A stretch of DNA of 64,000 nucleotides. Origin: Mytilus trossulus (lineage: Eukaryota). The notes beneath the pieces are model-generated. The model worked only from the letters and a program-made list of their open reading frames with translations, had not been told where the DNA came from and made no database searches. The stretch spans positions 71,858,001-71,922,000 of the forward strand of contig NC_086382.1 in NCBI RefSeq assembly GCF_036588685.1, read 5' to 3'. Shown in pieces: positions 4,481-56,395 of this stretch (its first letter is position 1; the number at the start of each line of letters is the position of its first letter). The position numbers were made by a program, and so were the translations under genes.

Positions 4481-5070
4481 ACCCAAAAAACAAATATTAG
4501 AAAGACTGATCTAAATCACTCCAAAAAAAAAAAGAAGACGCGTGTTAAACGTCTTGAACAAAACAATGTGTACATATAGAAACATAAAATATGCTGATGT
4601 GCATCTTTCATTCAATATATATATAGAATTTAGAATAATCCGGATTCGACAACAAATTTCGTATTACTTTTCAGTAATTTCACATCTAAATGATACATTA
4701 TTATTAATTTATAAACTCATTTATTTTTAATTTACATTTCAGATTTAAGTACACTCTCGGAGTAATCGCTTTTAGTTGAAGCAACGATCAAGTCCGTATA
4801 CAATGGATTTATGTATTTATCCATATAAGATATACTTATGAGCGAGTTCATAAATGGATCAGCTGAAATAGAAATTTAATGGATTAGATATAATGATTAT
4901 AAAGATTATTAAACCAAGGATTACGTGCTTTACGATGTGTGTTAATACTAAAACCATTTATTTGTGTCCCTTGACCTCCTAAAACCCTATCTCAATGTAT
5001 AGTTTAAGTAATCTAGTTGTGTTCGTGAAGGTAGATGTGTTAGTCGTAGAATTGTTCTATTGCAATAATA

Positions 5071-7508: not shown

Positions 7509-8548
7509 AAAAGAGGAGCGAAAGATACACAAGGGACAGTCAAACTAATAAAATCGAAAATAAACTGAAAACGTAATGGCTAAAAATGAAAAAGACAAAC
7601 AATCAATAGTACACATGACACAATATAGAAAACTATAGATTTAAGCAACACGAACCCCACCAAAAACAGGTGATCCGGAAGGGTAAGCAGATCCTGCTCC
7701 ACATGTGGCACCGTCGTGTTGCTTAAGTTATAACCATCCGGTAAATAGTATAATTTGGTAGGTCACATTCATGAAAGGGATGGCGATTGTAGTTATAACG
7801 TAAGGAACATATCAGATATCATCGGACTGTTAAATATAAACGGTTAACCAACTCGTAATGGCGCCCGTAAAATTTACGAAGGGATGATTTCAACTTCACC
7901 ATTTGGAATTCACCTCTTTTGTCATTAAGTTGTGTTTGTATCCAATCCTCATTGTTAATATCTAGATGTAAGTCAAGATATGAGGCCGACTTAACTGTAT
8001 CTGTTGTATCCTTTATATCTAGTGCCATCGGATAGATGCGTTAAACATAGTCACTAAATTTTTAAATGTTTATTGAGAGAACATCATCTTTATAGCGGAA
8101 AGTAAAGTTCAAGGATATTGCCAAATTCTGATCTTTCTTCCTCGGAAATTTCTGTATAAAGTCAGCCTCATAATAATAAAGAAACAAGTCGAAAGGAAGA
8201 AGGGCACAATTGGTTCCCATTGGAATTCCGACAGTTTTTTTTAAAAACACGTCCTCCAAACGTAAAAAATATGTTGTCAATCAAGAAATCAAGCATCTTG
8301 ATAATGTCAAATTCAGCGATTTTTTTGTATGAATCAGAGTGATCCTTTACAAAGTAGGATGTATCCCTCCCTAATACAAGATACTTGTATCTACGTTGGC
8401 CATTCTTTTTTATGAAACAAAGCAATGCTAACTCTTTCAATGTGTCTTTTAGTTTAAAATGTGGAATACTTGAGTAAAGTGTAGAAAAGTCAAGTGTTTT
8501 AATACTATTGCAAGATGAAAGATAGTTTGATTGTATGTACTCTAAAAG
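7509..8548 (-). mobile_element. 5'-truncated, frameshifted Penelope-like retroelement (RT core + 3' UTR), family P
   Basis: Translated pieces DFSTLY..IPH, GIPMGTNCA, FRYKDDVLSIN, SASYLDL, DKR and KFYGRH match PLE RT motifs; internal deletion near 7912. Confidence 0.85.
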
Positions 8549-10445
8549 AAATTAAAACGTCACTTAGGATTATCCTGGCAGGAAGATTAAAACGTCGTTT
8601 TGATCTTATGATACCAGGTTCATTTTTGACTTAAAATATCGTTTAAATCTATAAAAAAATGGCTTCTCTTTAACTGTAAATGACATCTTGATTCTATTAT
8701 ATAAGAGGCATCTTTGACGCTAAAATGTCATTTAGATTAATCATTACCGACGCATCTTGCACGTAACAGACGTCATTGTCGATTTCGAAAGAGAGCAGGC
8801 TATAATGCCCATGCAAGGGAGCACTCACACCCACAAAGTTGAAAATTGTTGATATAAGTTGTAATAACTAACTTCCCAATCTACTATCAATAAATATGTT
8901 AAAATCAAATTATGTAGATCTGTTATGACATGTAAACTACGTGCACTTAAACATGATACGTACGAATATTCTGAATTGTACATGTCAATGTCAAAACACT
9001 ATAAGATCTGTATAACAAACTTTTTACAACAAAAGTTGTTGAATTTTACACTTTCAAACCGTGTCAGGGTATTTTTACATCCTAACAATAAAAAAGACAA
9101 AAAGCATCGATTGAGAGTACAGAAATTGGTGGATGAAACTTGGACGCCATTCAATATAACATTAAAGTTCAACGACATCGACATTTAAGAGACTCTCTTG
9201 GTTTTAATAAAAACTGACAGGAGATTATTTTCGCTATAAGGTATGTACCAAGTCAGAAATATGACAGTTATTACCAATTCGTTTGATGTTTTTTGAGCTT
9301 TTGTACAATTTGATTAGGGATTTTCCGTTTTGATTTTTCCTCAAAGATCAGTATTTTTGTCATTTTACCTTTTTGCTATTAGGGATCAATAAATACGCAG
9401 CCACTTCGGAAATGGACATTTTAGTCTCTCAATGTTAGTTAACGTACTTCTGCAACACCGTGTTATCCGTGGTAAACTTTTATTCCACAGGCAAAATTCA
9501 AAATTATGTTTCTTTTTAAGACCACTTATATTCCACACATTTTTATTTTGCGCTACCTATTACTTTAATTGTGAGAATGAAGAGGTTTATCAAGCTGGAG
9601 AGACTCTGACCGTTATTAAAAGACACATGTCTGTGTTTTTGCAAATTATTGTTTACCTCATATCTTGAATCTCTTTATATATATTTACCTAATAGATTTT
9701 AACCAAACAAATTAATAAGTTTAAAGCGAAATAACTCAATTTAAATAGGTTTCTATATAGCAATATTTGGAATTATTTAAAATCTAAAAATCGCTAAAGA
9801 ATTTGACTTCTTGAAAATGGTATTTAAAAAGCCACAATTGGTGACAGAACAACAACTTAAAGGGGATTGGAATGTGGATGTCCCATGTCGAAGAAAACGT
9901 ATTATATACCGACATTCATTGCATTCATTGCCAACCCTTCATCGTTTATAAGCAGCAGCTCTGCTTAAATGTTATTCAGACATGAAACAAAAAAGCTTTT
10001 GTCTTCTAACTTAGTGATGTATACTCTATATACAGGTAAAATTGAGAATGGAAATGGAGAATATGTCAAAGAGACAACAACCCGACCATAGAAAAACAAC
10101 AACAGAAGGTCATCAATAGGTCTTCAATGTAGCGAGAAATTCCCGCACCCGGAGGCGTCCTTCAGCGGACCCCTAAACAAACATATAGTAGTTAAGTGAC
10201 AATGAATAAAATTGAGAATGGAAATGGGGAATGTGTCAAAGAGACAACAACCCGACCAAAATAAAAAAAACACAACAGCAGAAGGTCACCAACAGGTCTT
10301 CAATGTAGCGAGAAATTCCCGCACCCGGAGGCGTCCTTCAGCTGGCCCCTAAACAAATATATACTAGTTCAGTGATAATGAACGCCATACTTATTTCCAA
10401 ATTGTACACAAGAAACTAAAATTTAAATAATACAAGACTAACAAA

Positions 10446-10535
10446 GGCCAGAGGCTCCTGACTTGGGACAGGCGCAAAAATGCGGCGGGGTTAAACATGT
10501 TTGTGAGATCTCAACCCTCCCCCTATACCTCTAAC
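10446..10535 (-). ncRNA. Twister ribozyme, type-P5 permutation (intact core)
   Basis: Minus strand reads UAGAGGU-AUA-GGGG-G-A-GGG-[palindromes]-U^AA-CCCC-GC-CGCA(U4)UGCG-CCUG-U-CCC-AA-GU-CAGG-A-GCCUCUG; maps position by position onto the twister core (P2, T2, P3, P4, T1, catalytic G/A). Confidence 0.82.
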
Positions 10536-10619
10536 AGTGTAGAAAAGTAAATGAACGCCATATTAAATTCCAAATTGTACACACGAAAACTAAAATTAAA
10601 ATACTACAAGAATAACAAA

Positions 10620-10710
10620 GGCCAGAGGCTCATGACTTGGGACAGGCACATAATTGCGGCGGGGTTAAACATGTTTATGAGAACTCAACCCTCTCCCTAA
10701 ACCTCTAGCC
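10620..10710 (-). ncRNA. Twister ribozyme type-P5, second tandem copy (one mismatch each in P2 and P4)
   Basis: GGCUAGAGG/CCUCUGGCC P5, GAGGG, UAACCCCGCC, CCUGUCCCAAGUCAUG. Confidence 0.7.
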
Positions 10711-11512
10711 AATGTAGAAAAGTAAACGCATAACAATCGGCACATTAAAATTCAGTTCAAGAGAAGTCCGAGTCTGATGTCAGAAGATGTAACCAAAGAA
10801 AATAAACAAAATGACAATAATACATAAATAACAACAGACGACTAGGTGTTTATTAAACTATTAATACGGAAAGTTTTCACAGGCATAATCCAAAATTATC
10901 TTTTTTTAAATATATATTCTTCAATCTTTTTGCGCTCCATTTGCTTTAACTGTGTTGTGAACTTGTCCTGAATATATATGCATGATATATTTACTATTGC
11001 ACGCGCCAAAAAATAAAAAAAAAGTGTGTTTACTAAACTGAACAACTGTAAACTGTGTTGTTTTCATTTAGTTTTCCTCAATAAAATTAGAAAACTTATT
11101 CTAGATAAATGCAAATTAATATATATATAGTGTTGATAAAGTGTTGCTATATATATATAGTAGCTTTGGAGTGGTAGGAGAATAGACTTTAAAACATGAA
11201 CAAGAGATACAAGGCAATTGCCAAATGAAACAGTTACCACACAAAATGAAACAGCCATTCACCTACAACCTCCAAAACTCCAGGCAAGCACACTCCAATG
11301 AGCCAATCAAGGCGTTAAGAAGTGAAATATTGTAGGGTTCTAAGTTAGTTCAGCTGTATAACAATGCATATATATGTATAGTTATGCATTTCAATCAAGA
11401 ACTAAACAGTCTTACTCCTTTGCCTTATTGAAAACAACAACCCGAACATAGTGCACAAAATGTTTTTTTTTTACAAATACTGGTAAACCATAAGTGCAAT
11501 ATGTTTTCACAT

Positions 11513-13388: not shown

Positions 13389-13640
13389 TGAAAAAGTAAA
13401 ATCACAGAAATACTGAACTTAGAAGAAAATCAATTCGGAAAGTCCATAATCACATGGCAGAATCAAATAACAAAACGCATCAAAAACGAATGGACAAGAA
13501 CTGTCATATTCCTGACTTGGTACAGGAATTTTCAAATGTAGAAAATGGTGGATTAAACCTGGTTCTATAGCGCTAACCCTCTCACTTTAATGACAGTCTC
13601 ATCAAATTCCGTTATATATACATTGATTCGTTAAATAAAC
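13389..13640 (-). repeat. Repeat family C with twister-like motif (13500-13597), in the C1q-A intron
   Basis: ACUGUCAU/AUGACAGU P5, UAA-UCC-AC, CCUG-UACC-AA-GU-CAGG; absent from the paralogous segment near 10000-10020. Confidence 0.78.
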
Positions 13641-14302: not shown

Positions 14303-15262
14303 CGAGAGATAAGAATATGTGTCAATGTTCTGTTCTTATCAAAATATAGTCCTACTTATTAATAATATGTAATAATTCAGATTTTCAAAAACACTATCTG
14401 CGTATTAACATTCATATGAGTTGACAGAAATAAATGAACAAACCCATTTTGATATTCTTATTATACCCAGAAGCATGTCAAAGAACAGAAGAACACAATA
14501 TGTTCAACAGTGTTGGCTTTCCAACAGAAATTGTATAATACTTTTTTAAATAATTTGCATGTGTTTGGTTTAAATTTTCAAATTTTCCCCTTACATCTTG
14601 CAAAGAAAAGCATTGTACAGGATTAATCTCGGATCATATTTTCATAGTTCTGTAAAGATATGTTGAGGTGGGTCGAGACGACGAACATTTTAACATTTTT
14701 CAAATTTTCAGTTTGAGTTGTTTAAATTGATTATCGTCAAACAAAGCGGCATAACTCAGGTATAAATTGATAAAAACTGTATGACTATGTGTGACTACTT
14801 GTTTGTAAGAAAAAGAAAAAAATAAGTATATATTAAAGGCCTCATGATAACCTGCATTGGTTGTCTTTCTTTAAGGCAATTTGTGTGTCTTTGTTTCATT
14901 AGTGATTAAGATTATACTACAATGTTGCCATAGGTAACCCATTTGTTTACGAAGTTTTCCTTTCAAATCTGTTTGTTTTGCTTACAGATTAATTGTTGCG
15001 TTTTTAATGGTATTGAATGCGACTGTCATAGACGTGAGAGGCATAGCTAGCTATAAAACCAGATTGAATCCAATATTTTCGACATAAAGAAATGCATGTA
15101 CCAAGTCAGAAATAATACAGTTAACATGTTCTATTTGAAAAAGAGATTTCTATTTTTTTTAATTTTTTTTTGTGGTTTCAAATTTGTGTACCAATGTGAA
15201 TAAAAAATGTCAACAACTTCATTAGATGATGGAAATGCACTAACATGATTTTATCAAATTTT

Positions 15263-18055: not shown

Positions 18056-18504
18056 ATCTAATCAAATTGCAAAATCAAAAGCTCATACACATAAAACGAA
18101 TTGCTAACTCCTGACTTGGAAATTTTTAATGTATACTTTTTTGGATGAAACCTAGATTTATAGCTAGCTAAATCTCACACTTGTATAACATTTGCATAAA
18201 ACATTTCATTATATTGAAAACAACTTTTGAACCAAACAAGCAGTTATAAAAAGTAAAAGTTTGAAAAAAACAACAGTGTGTTAAAATCTCAAACACCAGG
18301 GTTTTCGATATCACAAACTAGTCAAAACATTTACTAAATTTTATCATCGGTATAAGGAATAATTATTAAACATAACTCAACATGCAAACATCTTATACGT
18401 TCAGGTATTTCACATCCAATCTTTTATGGTAATAATCTTTACAAAACACAAACATGTCAGTATTTACCCCAAAAGCTTACAAAACCTTTAAACAGACTTA
18501 TTAC

Positions 18505-19010
18505 ATAAAGGCAACAGTAGTATACCGCTGTTCAAACTCATAAATCTATGGACAAAAAAAATAAAATCGGGGTAACAAACTAAAACCGAGGGAAAGGCAT
18601 AAAATATAAGAGAACAACGGCACAACAATAAAATGTAACACACACAGAAACGGACAAAGAATCAGACAAAATCCCACGAGAATAACAAATATAACATCAA
18701 AACAAAAATACTTAATTTGGGATAGACAAGTACCGTGACATGTCTTATCGCAATATTAATTTACACTAAAAAATAAGAGAAAACAAACGACGCAACGTTA
18801 AAATGTAACACGCACAGAAACGAACAATAATATAATAATAGCCATATTCCTGACTTGGTACAGGACATTTTTAAAGAACAAAATGGTGGGCTGAACCTGG
18901 TTTTGTGGCATGCCAAACCACGCACTTTAATGGCAATGTTAAATATAACATTGAAATGACAACATAATATCACAGGACTACAATACAAATAAATAGGAGA
19001 ACGTATTAAG
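18505..19010 (-). repeat. Repeat family D with decayed twister-like motif (18841-18935)
   Basis: GCCAU/AUGGC P5, GGU..UACC T1, CCUG/CAGG P4; two core substitutions. Confidence 0.75.
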
Positions 19011-19079
19011 AAGGGATATAGTTACGATACTGTTGTCGGGTCATTAAAGATTGCATATTTTGGCTTTGGTATTGATTCA

Positions 19080-19735
19080 CTTATAGGGTCTTTGCATCGG
19101 AAGTAAACACATTTATTTAAAAAACAGTGGTTGGCATGACACGGGTTATTTTCTTTTCATATATTGTATGATTGTATGATACTAAACCCCTAACGAGAGG
19201 GATTTTGCCTGATATTCATATGATGAAGAAATAATCTATCCATTAGTTTAATTGAGGTCTGGAGCTGGTATGTCAGTTAACTGCTAGTATAGTCTGTTGT
19301 TATTATGTATTATTGTCATTTTATTTATTTTCTTTTGTTACATCTTCTGATATCGGACTCGAATTTCTCTTGAACCGAATTTTAATGTGCGTATTGATAT
19401 GCGTTTACTTTTCTACTTTGGGTAGAGGTATATGGGAGGGTTGAGATCTCATAAACATGTTTAACCCGGCCATAATTTTGCGCCTGTCCCAAGTCAAGAG
19501 CCTCTGGCCTTTTTGAGTCTTATATTTTATTTGCTTGTGTATAATTCGGAGTTAAGTATGACGTCCATTATCACTATACTAGTATACATATTTTTAAGGG
19601 GCCAGCTGAAGGACGCCTAAGGTTACGGGGGTTTCTCGCTACATTCAATACCCATTGGTGGCCGACGGCTGTTGTCTGCTCTATGGTCGGGTTGTTATCG
19701 TTATGTCACATTCCCCATTTCCTTTCTCAATTTTA
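19080..19735 (+). repeat. Repeat family A, long copy with twister-like motif (19420-19509)
   Basis: Homologous to 10206-10845 and 57480-58105; GAGGG..UUUAACCC..CCUGUCCCAAGUC. Confidence 0.8.
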
Positions 19736-39053: not shown

Positions 39054-39190
39054 GAAGCTGAAGGACGCCTCCGGGTGCGGGAATTTCTCGCTACATTGAA
39101 GACCTGTTGGTGACCTTCTGCTGTTGTGTTTTTTTATTTTGTTCGGGTTGTTGTCTCTTTGACACATTCCCCATTTCCATTCTCAATTTT
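39054..39190 (+). repeat. 3' end of repeat family A
   Basis: Reverse complement of 10206-10343. Confidence 0.8.
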
Positions 39191-48292: not shown

Positions 48293-49104
48293 AATAGTAG
48301 TTATTAAAGAAACCAGGATTATGATTTGATGTCCCAGACGCGCTTTTCGTCTAAACAAGACTCATCAGTGACGCTCAGATCAAAAAAGTTATAACCACTT
48401 CCACGTGTATTTTTTGTCTATCTGATGAGTTAACCCTTCTTCAACAGATTTTTATAGTTCGTTCTTATGTTGTACTGTTATACCACTGTCCCAGGTTAGG
48501 GGAGGGTTTTAACCACGCCACATTATTTATGTATGTGCCTGTCCCAAGTTAGGAGTCTGTAACTCAGTGGTTGTCGTTTGTTTATGTGTTACATATTTGT
48601 TTTTACATAAATAAGGCCGTTAGTTTTCTCGTTCGAATTGTTTTACATTGTCTTATCGAAGCCTTTTATAGCAGACTATGTGGTATGGGCTTTGCTCATT
48701 GCTGAAGGCCGTACGGTGACCGATAGTTGTTAATGTTTGTGTCTTTTTGGTCTTTTTGTCTCATTGACAATCATACCACATCTTCTTTTTTATATAACGC
48801 CAAAGAAGTACAAAGTTGTACAGCATTGAGGACCCACAATTCCAAATAATGTTGTGCCCAATAGTGCTTAGATAATCTTATTTCTTGGATTAAAAAAACC
48901 TTAGTTTTTCGAAATATTCAAAGTTTGTAAACAGGAAATTTATAAAAAAAAAATGACATACAATTGATATTCATGTCAACACCAAAGTGCTGACTACGGG
49001 ACTGTTGATACCCTCGGGGACGAAACGTCCACCACCAGTGGCTTCGAAACAGTGGTATAAATAGTTATTAAAGGTACAAGGATTATAACTTAATACGCTA
49101 GACG
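48293..49104 (-). mobile_element. Hammerhead retrozyme-like repeat (family H) interrupted by a family B insertion
   Basis: Terminal redundancy at 48296 and 49060; hammerhead at 48331-48375 (stem III mismatch). Confidence 0.8.
48395..48797 (+). repeat. Repeat family B nested in family H; twister-like motif at 48482-48571 lacking the palindromes
   Basis: Homologous to 55962-56395; TATAA on both sides. Confidence 0.8.
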
Positions 49105-53518: not shown

Positions 53519-54680
53519 AAGAGGGCATACGATACCAGAGGGACATTTAAACTCATATATCGATGACAAACTGAAAACACAATGGCTAGACAAACAGACA
53601 AACAAATGTACGTTCAGAAGACAAAACATGGAAAACTAAAGAATAAGCAACAAGAATCGCACTAAAAACTTGGGGTGATCTCAGGTGCTCCGGACGGGTA
53701 AGCAGATCCTGCTCCACATATGGCATCCTTCATGTTGCTTATTTTTTGAAAAATCTATTCGGTAGGTCACAAGAGTAAAAAGGGAAGGGTTTTGTTTAAG
53801 GAAAATATCAGTTAATCTGTAAAATGGTTATTCAATAACTGTCAACCAAATCGTGATGGTGTCCGTAATATATACGAAGGGATGAATTCAACTTCACCAT
53901 TTGAAACTCCTGGTTTATTACTTCTTTGTGAGCAGCAAACCTCTATCAAAGAAAGCAGGATAAGAAATACAAGACCGGAAATATCGTATCAATGGAGATA
54001 TGACCGGATGTAGTTGCTGCTGGAATGCTGCTATATAGAAATGGAAAATTCACAATTGGTAAGTTGAATGGTTTTACACTAGTAATTTTGAGGCCCTTTA
54101 TAGCTTGTTGTTCGGTGTGAGCCAAGGCTCCGTGTGGAAGGCCGTACTTTAACCTATAATGGTTTACTTTTTAAATTGTTAATTGGATGGAGAGTTGTCT
54201 CATTGGCACCCACACCACATCTTCCTAATTCTATGAAATCATGTCTTTCGTTCGCATATTTTTGTTTTCAACCGACCCTCATTGTCAATTTCTAGATGAA
54301 AAGTCAAGATATTAGGTAGACTTAACTGTATCTGTAGCATACTTATCTCTAGTTCGATTGGATAGATGCGTTCAAAATAGTCACCAAAATTTGTATTGTT
54401 AAGTAAGAGAACATCATCTATATAATGGAACGTTAAGTTTAAGGATGTTGCTTATTTCTTAGCTTCATCCTAAGAAACATCTATCCAAGAAGATGAACAC
54501 AATTGGTTCCAATTGGAGTTCCGACACTATGTTGAAAAACACGTCCTCCGCCATGTTGTCAATTAAGAAATTAAACCTCTTGATAATGTCAGTTTCAGAG
54601 AATTTGTTTTTAATCAGAGTGATTCTTTACAAAATAGAAAAATAGGAGCAAGATTCCAGTCTTAAGTGGTCATTTTGGTT
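53519..54680 (-). mobile_element. Degraded Penelope-like retroelement, family P (RT + 3' UTR), with a nested family E insert at 54065-54233
   Basis: Homologous to 7509-8400; remnants of G.P.GTNC, DDVL and YP.EL. Confidence 0.8.
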
Positions 54681-55182: not shown

Positions 55183-56395
55183 AACGGGAAACTACACACT
55201 GAATTTTACGACAATAGAGACGATTTTTCGTTCCCTATTGTTAATTTTCCATTTTTAGAGGGTGATGTTTCTTTGGCACCATCTTACGTTGTTTATATTT
55301 CACAACTTGTTCGCTATGCCCGTGTCTGTCGTGACGGTTTTGATTTTAACGAACGCAACCTATGTATTACTGATAAATTATTAAACCAGGGATATCATTA
55401 CCATAAATTACTCTAAACCTTTACTACCTTTTTTCATAGATATAAAGAGTTGGTTTTGAAGTTTTGTTGTACCTGTAGAAAACTTATTTCTAACGGGATA
55501 TCATATCCTCATTTTCACGGCAATGTTGTTAACAGTGCCCGGAAATTTAGAAATGATTCATGTAAACTTGTCGCTCCTTTAAATAAACTAATTCTAAAAG
55601 GTTACCTATTCAACACTGTAATAAGGTCATTGAATATTGTTTTATTGGTATAAATATTGATTTTGTAATCCGTAGATTAAAAGCTAACTAAATATTACTG
55701 GTGTGTTATATACATATACATATTCTTGGATCCACAATCTGTCGATACCTGTAACTTGGCATTGCACAAGGTCATGTCTTTCTCTGGCTGTTTATGACGT
55801 CTTTACACTAAATCCATTGGATGTTGGAGGTGTACAGATTGATTGTTTAGTCTTAGATGCATGATTTTTTTATAAGTTGTTAGAGGCTTTGAACTAGCTG
55901 TCAGATTACTGCGAGTACTCTCAGATCTGTTAATGATGTTTTTTGCGTCGGGAAGTAACCGGCCACGTCCACTTTAATTTGTTGTCCATCTGATGAGGTA
56001 AGCCTTTTTTAACTGATTTTTATAGTTCGTTCTTATGTTGTACTGTTATACCACTGTCCCAGGTTAGGAGGAGGGTTGGGATCCCGCTAACATGTGTAAC
56101 ACCGCCACATTATTGATGTATGTGCCTGTCCCAAGTCAGGAGCCTGTAATTCAGTGGTTGTCGTTTGTTTATGTGTTGCATGTTTGTTTTTCGTTCTTTT
56201 TTTTTACATAGATAAGGTCGTTAGTTTTCTCGTTTTACATTGTCTTATCGGAGCCTTTTATAGATGACTATGCGGTATGGGCTTTGCTCATTGTTGAAGG
56301 CCGTACGGTGACCTATAGTTGATAATGTTTGTGTCATTTTGCTTTTTTGTGGATAGTTGTCTCATTGGCACTCATACCACATCTTCTGTTTTATA
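55183..56395 (+). mobile_element. 5'-truncated Penelope-like retroelement, family B (RT thumb/C-terminus + ~700-nt 3' region containing a twister motif)
   Basis: GKLHTEFYDNRDDFSFPIVNFPFL...YISQLVRYARVC...KLLNQGY; one in-frame stop; the 3' region matches the short family B repeats. Confidence 0.85.
56050..56158 (+). ncRNA. Twister ribozyme type-P5 in the PLE 3' region
   Basis: ACCACUG/CAGUGGU plus AGGU/GCCU P5; GGAG-G-A-GGG; U^AA-CACC-GC; CACAU/AUGUG P3; CCUG-UCCC-AA-GU-CAGG. Confidence 0.75.

Follow-up and report, generated by a model that had tools for sequence, protein, structure and literature searches.

A P1-less twister-type fold in the 3' UTRs of Naiad-type Penelope-like elements of Mytilus trossulus, with palindromes that probably pair between copies and a tentative dimer gate

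Comparative sequence analysis pointed to a real, widespread and apparently undescribed twister-type variant in the 3' UTRs of Naiad retrotransposons, a circularly permuted fold that lacks P1, cleavage being only predicted. The place of P1 is taken by a 21-24 nt linker made of two palindromes, which probably pair between two copies of the RNA. A bolder reading, to which we give a probability of roughly 40%, is that of a natural dimer-gated twister with a strict gate: a lone copy would lock itself, two copies would unlock each other through both palindromic helices, and only tandem transcripts would be cut. The window, as the whole 64,000-nt stretch of Mytilus trossulus DNA analysed here is called (contig NC_086382.1, positions 71,858,001 to 71,922,000), carries on its minus strand two copies of a P5-open twister-like core, 174 nt apart.

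The intact core was delimited by alignment, folding and covariation at positions 10447..10535 of the minus strand, in the P5-open permutation. P5 is formed by 10527-10535 with 10447-10455 and P2 by 10520-10523 with 10487-10490; a G and an A (10518-10519) precede the T1 3' strand (10515-10517), T2 lies at 10485-10486, and P4 with its loop L4 spans 10457-10472. The T1 strand is followed by one U, palindrome 1 (UGAGAUCUCA, 10504-10513), one C, palindrome 2 (AAACAUGUUU, 10493-10502) and the AA of the predicted cut site. Palindrome 2 ends at the nucleotide 5' of that cut, the scissile bond U^A being placed at 10492..10493 (10493^10492) from the alignment, by homology to twister. The numbering and the roles assigned to A+1, the general acid, and to the general-base G follow common twister usage; passages of PMC11662667 also bear on them. 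A+1, the general-base G and the L4 residues are present in the focal copies and nearly invariant across the aligned rows, most of them having been demanded by the search patterns. Folding gave each palindrome a hairpin energy of 0.0 kcal/mol and self-duplexes of -14.0 (palindrome 1) and -8.2 kcal/mol (palindrome 2), which bears out the original prediction of weak hairpins and good intermolecular helices. The second core (10621..10709, minus strand) is damaged: its palindrome 1 is broken (UGAGUUCUCA, 10678-10687) and its P4 has a mismatch, while palindrome 2 is intact (10667-10676, A+1 at 10666).

The spacing of about 175 nt had been taken for a tandem arrangement that could restrict cleavage to tandem transcripts. 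The two cores are indeed 174 nt apart, but they owe this to a nested insertion. A young, 5'-truncated copy of family A (10206..10551, minus strand), 98.8% identical to the 3' UTR of a near-full-length unit at locus L092, lies inside an older family A copy, whose 5' part (10550..10845, minus strand, 92.6% identity) and 3' part (10037..10206, minus strand, 89.7%) are continuous in element coordinates. This continuity, together with TTCATT at both junctions (10550..10555 for the 5' copy and 10201-10206 for the 3' copy, minus strand), a likely target-site duplication judging from the junctions, indicated that the young copy inserted into the old one. The 174-nt spacing was found at only one of 30 family A loci, the focal one; two more had another L4 match, of any family, within 1.3 kb. 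The repeat was thus discarded as a functional tandem, being a chance nesting with a damaged partner, and a transcript of 10440-10715 would be a poor tandem test for the same two reasons.

The element itself is, on motifs read by eye, a Naiad-type Penelope-like element. Thirty close family A copies share a fixed 3' end and have ragged 5' ends, the longer ones extending into an ORF, and all 150 of 150 among the genome matches listed were at least 98% identical. The ORF (L091:5601-8609) has 1002 residues with four TGA codons read through; a GIY-YIG-like N-terminus, CxC, GPKY, DKA and a C-terminal RT were recognised by eye and matched to the description in the available part of PMC8557442, while a Pfam search of the ORF recognised neither GIY-YIG nor RT. 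Partial tandems, frequent 5' truncation and a fixed 3' end, all Naiad traits, were found as well. In five loci chosen for paired ORF matches, units stood head to tail with a twister spacing of 4016-4032 nt in 5/5; the true tandem unit is therefore about 4.03 kb, not 174 nt. The twister lies about 330 nt after the stop codon and 285 nt ahead of the element 3' end. It was linked to the ORF in families A (11 of 37 copies) and B (2 of 6) and in none of the remaining 21 groups, where loci were short or truncated. Sixty-three L4 matches, of which 42 fell into four clusters, were counted in 614 kb (the window, four stretches close to it and 51 scattered ones), and a rough extrapolation from these 614 kb gives a copy number of about 90,000. 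An initial view of the element as a short non-coding retrozyme was abandoned since the shared sequence continued into the ORF.

The four UGA stand at identical codons in the full-length frames of L091, L092 and L094, one of them 8 residues past DKA, as published, and a SECIS-like hairpin was found in the 3' UTR by folding and eye (L092:4508-4572). Family A is thus likely a selenoprotein Naiad, in a mussel, with UGA at conserved cysteines. The hairpin with which the 3' UTR opens was first read as hammerhead-like, a view dropped as the UGA codons indicated a SECIS. In-frame UGA at conserved cysteines together with SECIS have been reported for Naiads of two clams and two spiders (PMC8557442).

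Identity of the core as a twister could not be read from a database score. A scan with Rfam at its cut-off gave no match in the window; the best match below it, to RF03160 (twister-P1), reached 23.1 bits against a cut-off of 67.2 (E 0.034) and stitched both local copies together, in a scan that kept only the best overlapping match per clan. The comparative set consisted of 23 sequence groups, nine of them multi-copy families. Further families were fetched by genome queries that did not include the linker, and metagenome contigs were scanned with a pattern that left the linker free; the latter scan gave 109 loci, of which 41 passed and 68 failed a linker-independent core filter. For covariation, 22 rows were aligned after removal of L214 and L249 as likely chance matches and addition of one subfamily. 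P2, T1, T2 and P4 together had 92% of cells paired, against 34-51% in slid registers, and seven of 13 core pairs changed on both sides, a score reached by none of 500 shuffles. Taken singly, P2 was paired in 84% and P4 in 98% of cells, with two of four pairs in each changing on both sides; T1 was paired in 89% and T2 in 100%, the T2 pair types over the 22 rows being AU (9), CG (8) and GU (5). The twister identity that the original prediction had assumed thus found support in covariation, and the core works like a twister by structure, as far as P2/P4 covariation and the T1/T2 pseudoknots indicate; with P1 absent and a low Rfam score, it is not a standard member.

Some families depart further from the standard. 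In families C1, C2 and D the P2 5' strand has 3 nt. Family D (L131-L140) is very young, with 40/40 matches listed 100% identical over 120 nt, yet has this short strand, and its -1 position is C or U. Five near-identical family E copies (L143, L145-L148) have U in place of A at +2; a genome query for family E itself gave no matches, and these copies were recovered with another linker-free query. Such irregular P2 strands in young, recently active families and the U at +2 could mean that the twister-derived fold cleaves little or not at all and is a structural element of the 3' UTR, or that dimer pairing blocks the cut site, as it could since palindrome 2 pairs the nucleotide at -1; the low Rfam score and three RNA runs without a pile-up of ends would fit as well. 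We consider this unlikely. The general-base G, the following A and the L4 residues were invariant in 22/22 rows (search patterns having fixed part of these), T1 and T2 covary, and natural twisters tolerate P2 flaws and pseudoknot wobbles, according to the available passages of PMC11662667.

The claim that P1 is replaced by two palindromes held throughout the multi-copy families: no P1 pair was found in 9/9 of them, nor in 21 of the 23 groups. Families A to D, with their differing self-complementary tracts, were all recovered in the window as first described, and the tracts recurred genome-wide among copies fetched by queries that excluded the linker. Palindrome 1 was a perfect tract of 8-10 nt in all nine multi-copy families and a perfect tract of at least 8 nt at a fixed register in 15 of 23 groups (shuffle p<0.05 each), the other eight being single loci, decayed or due to chance. 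Among the 15 groups seven centres occurred (GAUC, UAUA, CAUG, CUAG, GCGC, GUAC and CGCG), and all five symmetric pairs changed on both sides. The adjacent middle bases also covaried (AU 9, GC 3, UA 2, CG 1); as adjacent bases cannot pair within one strand, this is accounted for only by pairing between two copies. Palindrome 2 was weaker, with at least four pairs in 16 of 23 groups, often a central mismatch or wobble, and p<0.05 individually in only four of 23. In the AACCAGGUU tract, a central A is unpaired.

Combined shuffle p values of 7.5e-14 (palindrome 1) and 6e-4 (palindrome 2) are too low because the families are related, but every change of a palindrome centre requires two matched substitutions. 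Scoring single copies for two perfect palindromes barely separated real (6/24) from chance (6/27) sequences; since single genomic copies are decayed, the test was repeated with the register fixed and with family majorities in place of single copies. The sequences thereby support selection for pairing between copies, and the palindromes probably serve to join two RNAs. Palindromes read the same in DNA, and they might act there, as cDNA hairpins or sites for dimeric proteins, or might have arisen by chance. Short DNA hairpins with tiny loops exist. We regard this as very improbable: seven different centres rule out one sequence-specific site, the G-U wobble centre of palindrome 2 in family M1 suits RNA, and chance is excluded by the palindrome register shuffles and by the covariation of palindrome 1.

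The same design was recognised by eye in published elements. Of 54 published Naiads, 14 3' ends were examined, with names assigned from record order, and five (Mgal, Bpla, Mphi, Scon and Mmer) carried the twister with palindromes: GGCGCC and AAUCUGAUU in Naiad_Bpla, UUGAUGCAUCAA and AAACCUGGUUU in Naiad_Mphi, UGGAGCGCUCCA and AAACCAGGUUU in Naiad_Scon, GGUGCGCACC and AAACCGGUUU in Naiad_Mmer. Family C1, again by eye, agrees with the published 3' end of Naiad_Mgal. In eight others, also read by eye, the twister was absent and a different structured motif with one covarying 10-nt palindrome was found. This motif (CGi, Sglo, Olur, Tgra, Pmar, 1_Skow, 2_Skow and 1_Pfla) is conserved, pseudoknot-like and situated in the 3' UTR; its palindromes include UGACCGGUCA, UAGCUAGCUA, UUGCAUGCAA, CCACAUGUGG and UAGCAUGCUA. 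It was also observed at L056:7400-7500 and ten other loci of the source genome. A pattern for it had no copy within the 64-kb window, and an Rfam search with it matched no family. It is a candidate dimer signal or undescribed ribozyme. The last 600 nt of Naiad Mcor, read by eye, had neither the twister design nor this other motif.

How pairing between copies might control cleavage is suggested by the predicted fold of the monomer. In the focal copy, GGGUUGAG would pair with UUUAACCC in a hairpin at 10488..10517 (minus strand), termed here the OFF helix, which buries A+1 and A+2 and takes up the P2 5' strand. In family A this state had P 0.99 and lay 4.8 kcal/mol below the native-compatible fold, in a program that gives no credit to pseudoknots or tertiary contacts. 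An OFF helix of at least 4 bp through A+1/A+2 was found in 18 of 23 groups and in 9/9 families (mean 6.0, against 1.4 for shuffled linkers); a control scan of viral contigs for canonical P5-open twisters found none, so that ordinary twisters do not figure in this comparison. The U after the T1 strand was invariant in 22/22 rows, and the outer arms were conserved and the palindrome centres variable, a distribution that a two-state switch predicts.

Other figures were less favourable to a gate. Ensemble folding gave the OFF state P>0.5 in only three of nine families and six of 23 groups (mean P 0.31 vs 0.14), with some groups represented by mutated copies and T1, T2 and tertiary contacts uncredited. 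In C1 and D the OFF helix had only 4 bp and no overlap with palindrome 1. The passage of two OFF monomers to a native-compatible dimer was favourable by -4.1 kcal/mol at 1 uM with both helices and no credit for T1/T2, and the switch with palindrome 1 alone was unfavourable below about 1 mM. T1, T2 and tertiary contacts may also beat the 4.8 kcal/mol gap within the monomer. Geometry may set a further limit: two helices between closed loops would need about two turns of threading, which may prevent them from coexisting, so that they might arise one after the other or while the RNA is still being made. A strand-swapped dimer in which both palindromes pair was excluded as its 1-3 nt spacer would be too short to span a helix.

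The sequence of events under the preferred, dimer-gated reading would be as follows. As long as a copy is alone, the invariant UU that follows its T1 strand would pair, together with neighbouring bases, with A+1/A+2 and the P2 5' strand. When two copies meet, the simplest case being the two ends of one transcript that spans a head-to-tail pair, the strong palindrome 1 and the weak palindrome 2 would pair across copies and strip the inner pairs from the OFF helix, whose opening would let P2, T1 and T2 form the cleaving state. Two cuts would then release a unit-length RNA open to circularisation, and most single copies, be they circles or the solo copies that host transcripts contain by the tens of thousands, would escape cutting. 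Such a gate is likely leaky rather than absolute. As loss of P1 alone requires no dimer, a gate on cleavage needs a monomer that is held off; that palindrome pairing switches the fold from a self-blocked to a cleaving state has, in our estimate, somewhat less than an even chance. Of the dimer-activated twister originally put forward, pairing between copies under selection was retained, but activation is weakened by the dispensability of P1 and by an OFF state that dominates in three of nine families only.

P1 belongs to the three stems of the twister consensus as first defined and is known from experiments to be dispensable. P1-less twisters cleaved at an almost wild-type rate in the data presented in PMC5408937, and P1 flaws were without effect in the screen of natural twisters described in PMC11662667; twister cleavage without P1 is called inefficient in passages of PMC8501958. 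A monomer that cleaves like a mini-twister has to be weighed accordingly, in which case the palindromes would provide a dimer link that keeps cut ends or a pair of RNAs in contact for another step, be it circularisation, RNP assembly or template switching by the RT; the last of these would yield partial tandems. The palindromic motif in eight of 14 Naiads without the twister fits this, since dimerisation may be a general Naiad need. We rate it a serious possibility with the odds against it. It leaves unexplained why the tracts lie exactly in the place of P1, one of them ending at the cut site, as well as the invariant U and the OFF register, and a cutter active as monomer would detach the ORF from the 3' end, where copying starts, and would linearise circles again.

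RNA reads from three runs of one study (about 6% of each) bear on the same choice. Among the read ends listed, no pile-up was seen at the predicted cut, at a depth of 415-970 per strand. Beyond the element 3' end the depth fell to about 1%, which indicates that about 99% of these reads came from solo copies in host transcripts. On the sense strand, presumed from the usual stranded library type, depth was flat over three bins and then rose 1.44-1.66 fold at the bin edge of the cut site (1.13-1.20 on the other strand), as expected if monomers cleave. However, a similar step occurred on the same strand at 4658/4659 (1.50-1.57), so the one at the cut site is not specific. Most solo copies are probably uncut; a minority may be cut.

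None of 32 family A pieces started within 10 nt of the cut site, so that insertion templates read through it and would have been uncut, or re-joined, at that point. Two of 50 loci (L131 and L155, of other families) were truncated at about the cut site, which speaks for an active monomer. An uncut or re-joined template agrees with a circle that arises from a tandem transcript and persists in monomeric form, a model put forward earlier for dimeric hammerheads in other Penelope-like elements (PMC6765202, PMC7761336).

Among known ribozymes, the closest are Type-P5 twisters (Rfam clan CL00120; consensus in PMC5408937), which have a like strand order, P2, P4, P5, T1 and T2, N^AA at L1, G-A before the T1 strand and an L4 of the UNCYAAGN type. 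The Naiad twister differs in having no P1 and a two-palindrome linker of 21-24 nt, in scoring far below the Rfam cut-off, in a T2 closed by G-U, A-U or C-G, and in the 3-nt P2 strand of some families. The available passages of PMC10085705 report that no new twister permutations were found. Mini-twisters and the T-variants of Schistosoma Perere-3 (PMC5408937, PMC8501958) are likewise weak in or devoid of P1 and tied to a retrotransposon. Twisters of the Perere-3 type open at P1 and lie at the element 5' end beside the target-site duplication, whereas the Naiad twister is internal to the 3' UTR, is copied through intact and belongs to a Penelope-like element. The string 'palindrom' has no occurrence in the text of PMC8501958, and RTE-associated truncated twisters are mentioned in PMC7761336.

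For other Penelope-like elements, hammerheads have been described in which stem III is palindromic and cleavage likely takes place in the dimer (PMC6765202). These minimal type-I hammerheads of pLTRs resemble the Naiad twister in host class, element position, tandem arrangement and a palindrome where the helix beside the cut site is missing; the Naiad twister is of another ribozyme class and has two palindromes, not one. The analogy, part of the original prediction, gains weight now that the host is a Penelope-like element. The missing helix is unneeded for twister catalysis, however, so any gate must act through a blocked monomer fold, unlike in hammerheads. A 2026 preprint on retrozymes and Penelope-like elements concerns hammerheads, in the part available.

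Naiads as described in PMC8557442 share with the present element the GIY-YIG-like N-terminus, CxC, GxKY, DKA, C-terminal RT, partial tandems, 5' truncation, UGA at conserved cysteines and a SECIS-like hairpin. In the available passages they are described without canonical hammerheads or a twister, unlike here, where a twister lies in the 3' UTR; they are said to thrive in bivalve genomes and to be dominant there without a hammerhead, which was read as a hint of a passenger ribozyme. The word 'twister' is absent from the text and supplement of PMC8557442. Among the papers listed in a literature search, none dealt with a twister in Naiads or bivalves or with a palindromic dimeric twister; the original papers on twisters or on dimeric hammerheads of Penelope-like elements, or subscription papers, may include such cases.

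If the dimer gate were real, Naiads would have their missing ribozyme, and it would be the first twister in nature to be gated by oligomerisation, having converged on the dimeric hammerhead logic of other Penelope-like elements. A twister in the position of the hammerhead, with the same palindrome trick, would then point to a recurrent need of these elements for a self-cleaving RNA that senses tandems, and the palindromic motif seen in Naiads of oysters and hemichordates could prove to be another, as yet undescribed catalytic RNA. Such a gate would also explain how a genome tolerates some 90,000 cutter copies (a rough extrapolation) inside transcripts, and would provide a two-copy RNA switch of natural origin that is reprogrammable and comes with several orthogonal palindromes. 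The role of ribozymes in Penelope-like elements becomes testable with a 90-nt RNA.

Copies of several families are scattered over the window, at approximate positions: family A at 19415..19510 (plus strand), family C2 at 13500..13600 (minus strand; UAGCGCUA and a AAACCAGGUUU-type tract), a degenerate family C1 copy at 15025..15120 (plus strand; UAGCUAGCUA), family D at 18840..18940 (minus strand; UGGCAUGCCA) and family B at 56060..56155 (plus strand; GGGAUCCC). The family B copy lies 437 nt downstream of a Naiad-like RT fragment (55183-55629, plus strand) whose identity to the family A protein is 62%; other pieces of Naiad-like RT ORFs were seen at 7903-8524 (minus), 18288-19735 (plus) and 54245-54549 (minus). 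Another family B copy (48470-48560, plus strand) has lost the whole palindrome linker between the two arms of the predicted OFF hairpin. The 3' UTR of family A contains a second structured RNA motif downstream of the twister, at 10277..10344 (minus strand; z -2.7 for the same stretch in L092), also observed at 10100-10170, 19600-19680 and 39058-39125; it includes short self-complementary tracts and is common, in variant form, to related subfamilies. Finally, a chimeric copy (L115:1400-1520) passes from family A into family B sequence within the twister core, possibly through a template switch between two RNAs.
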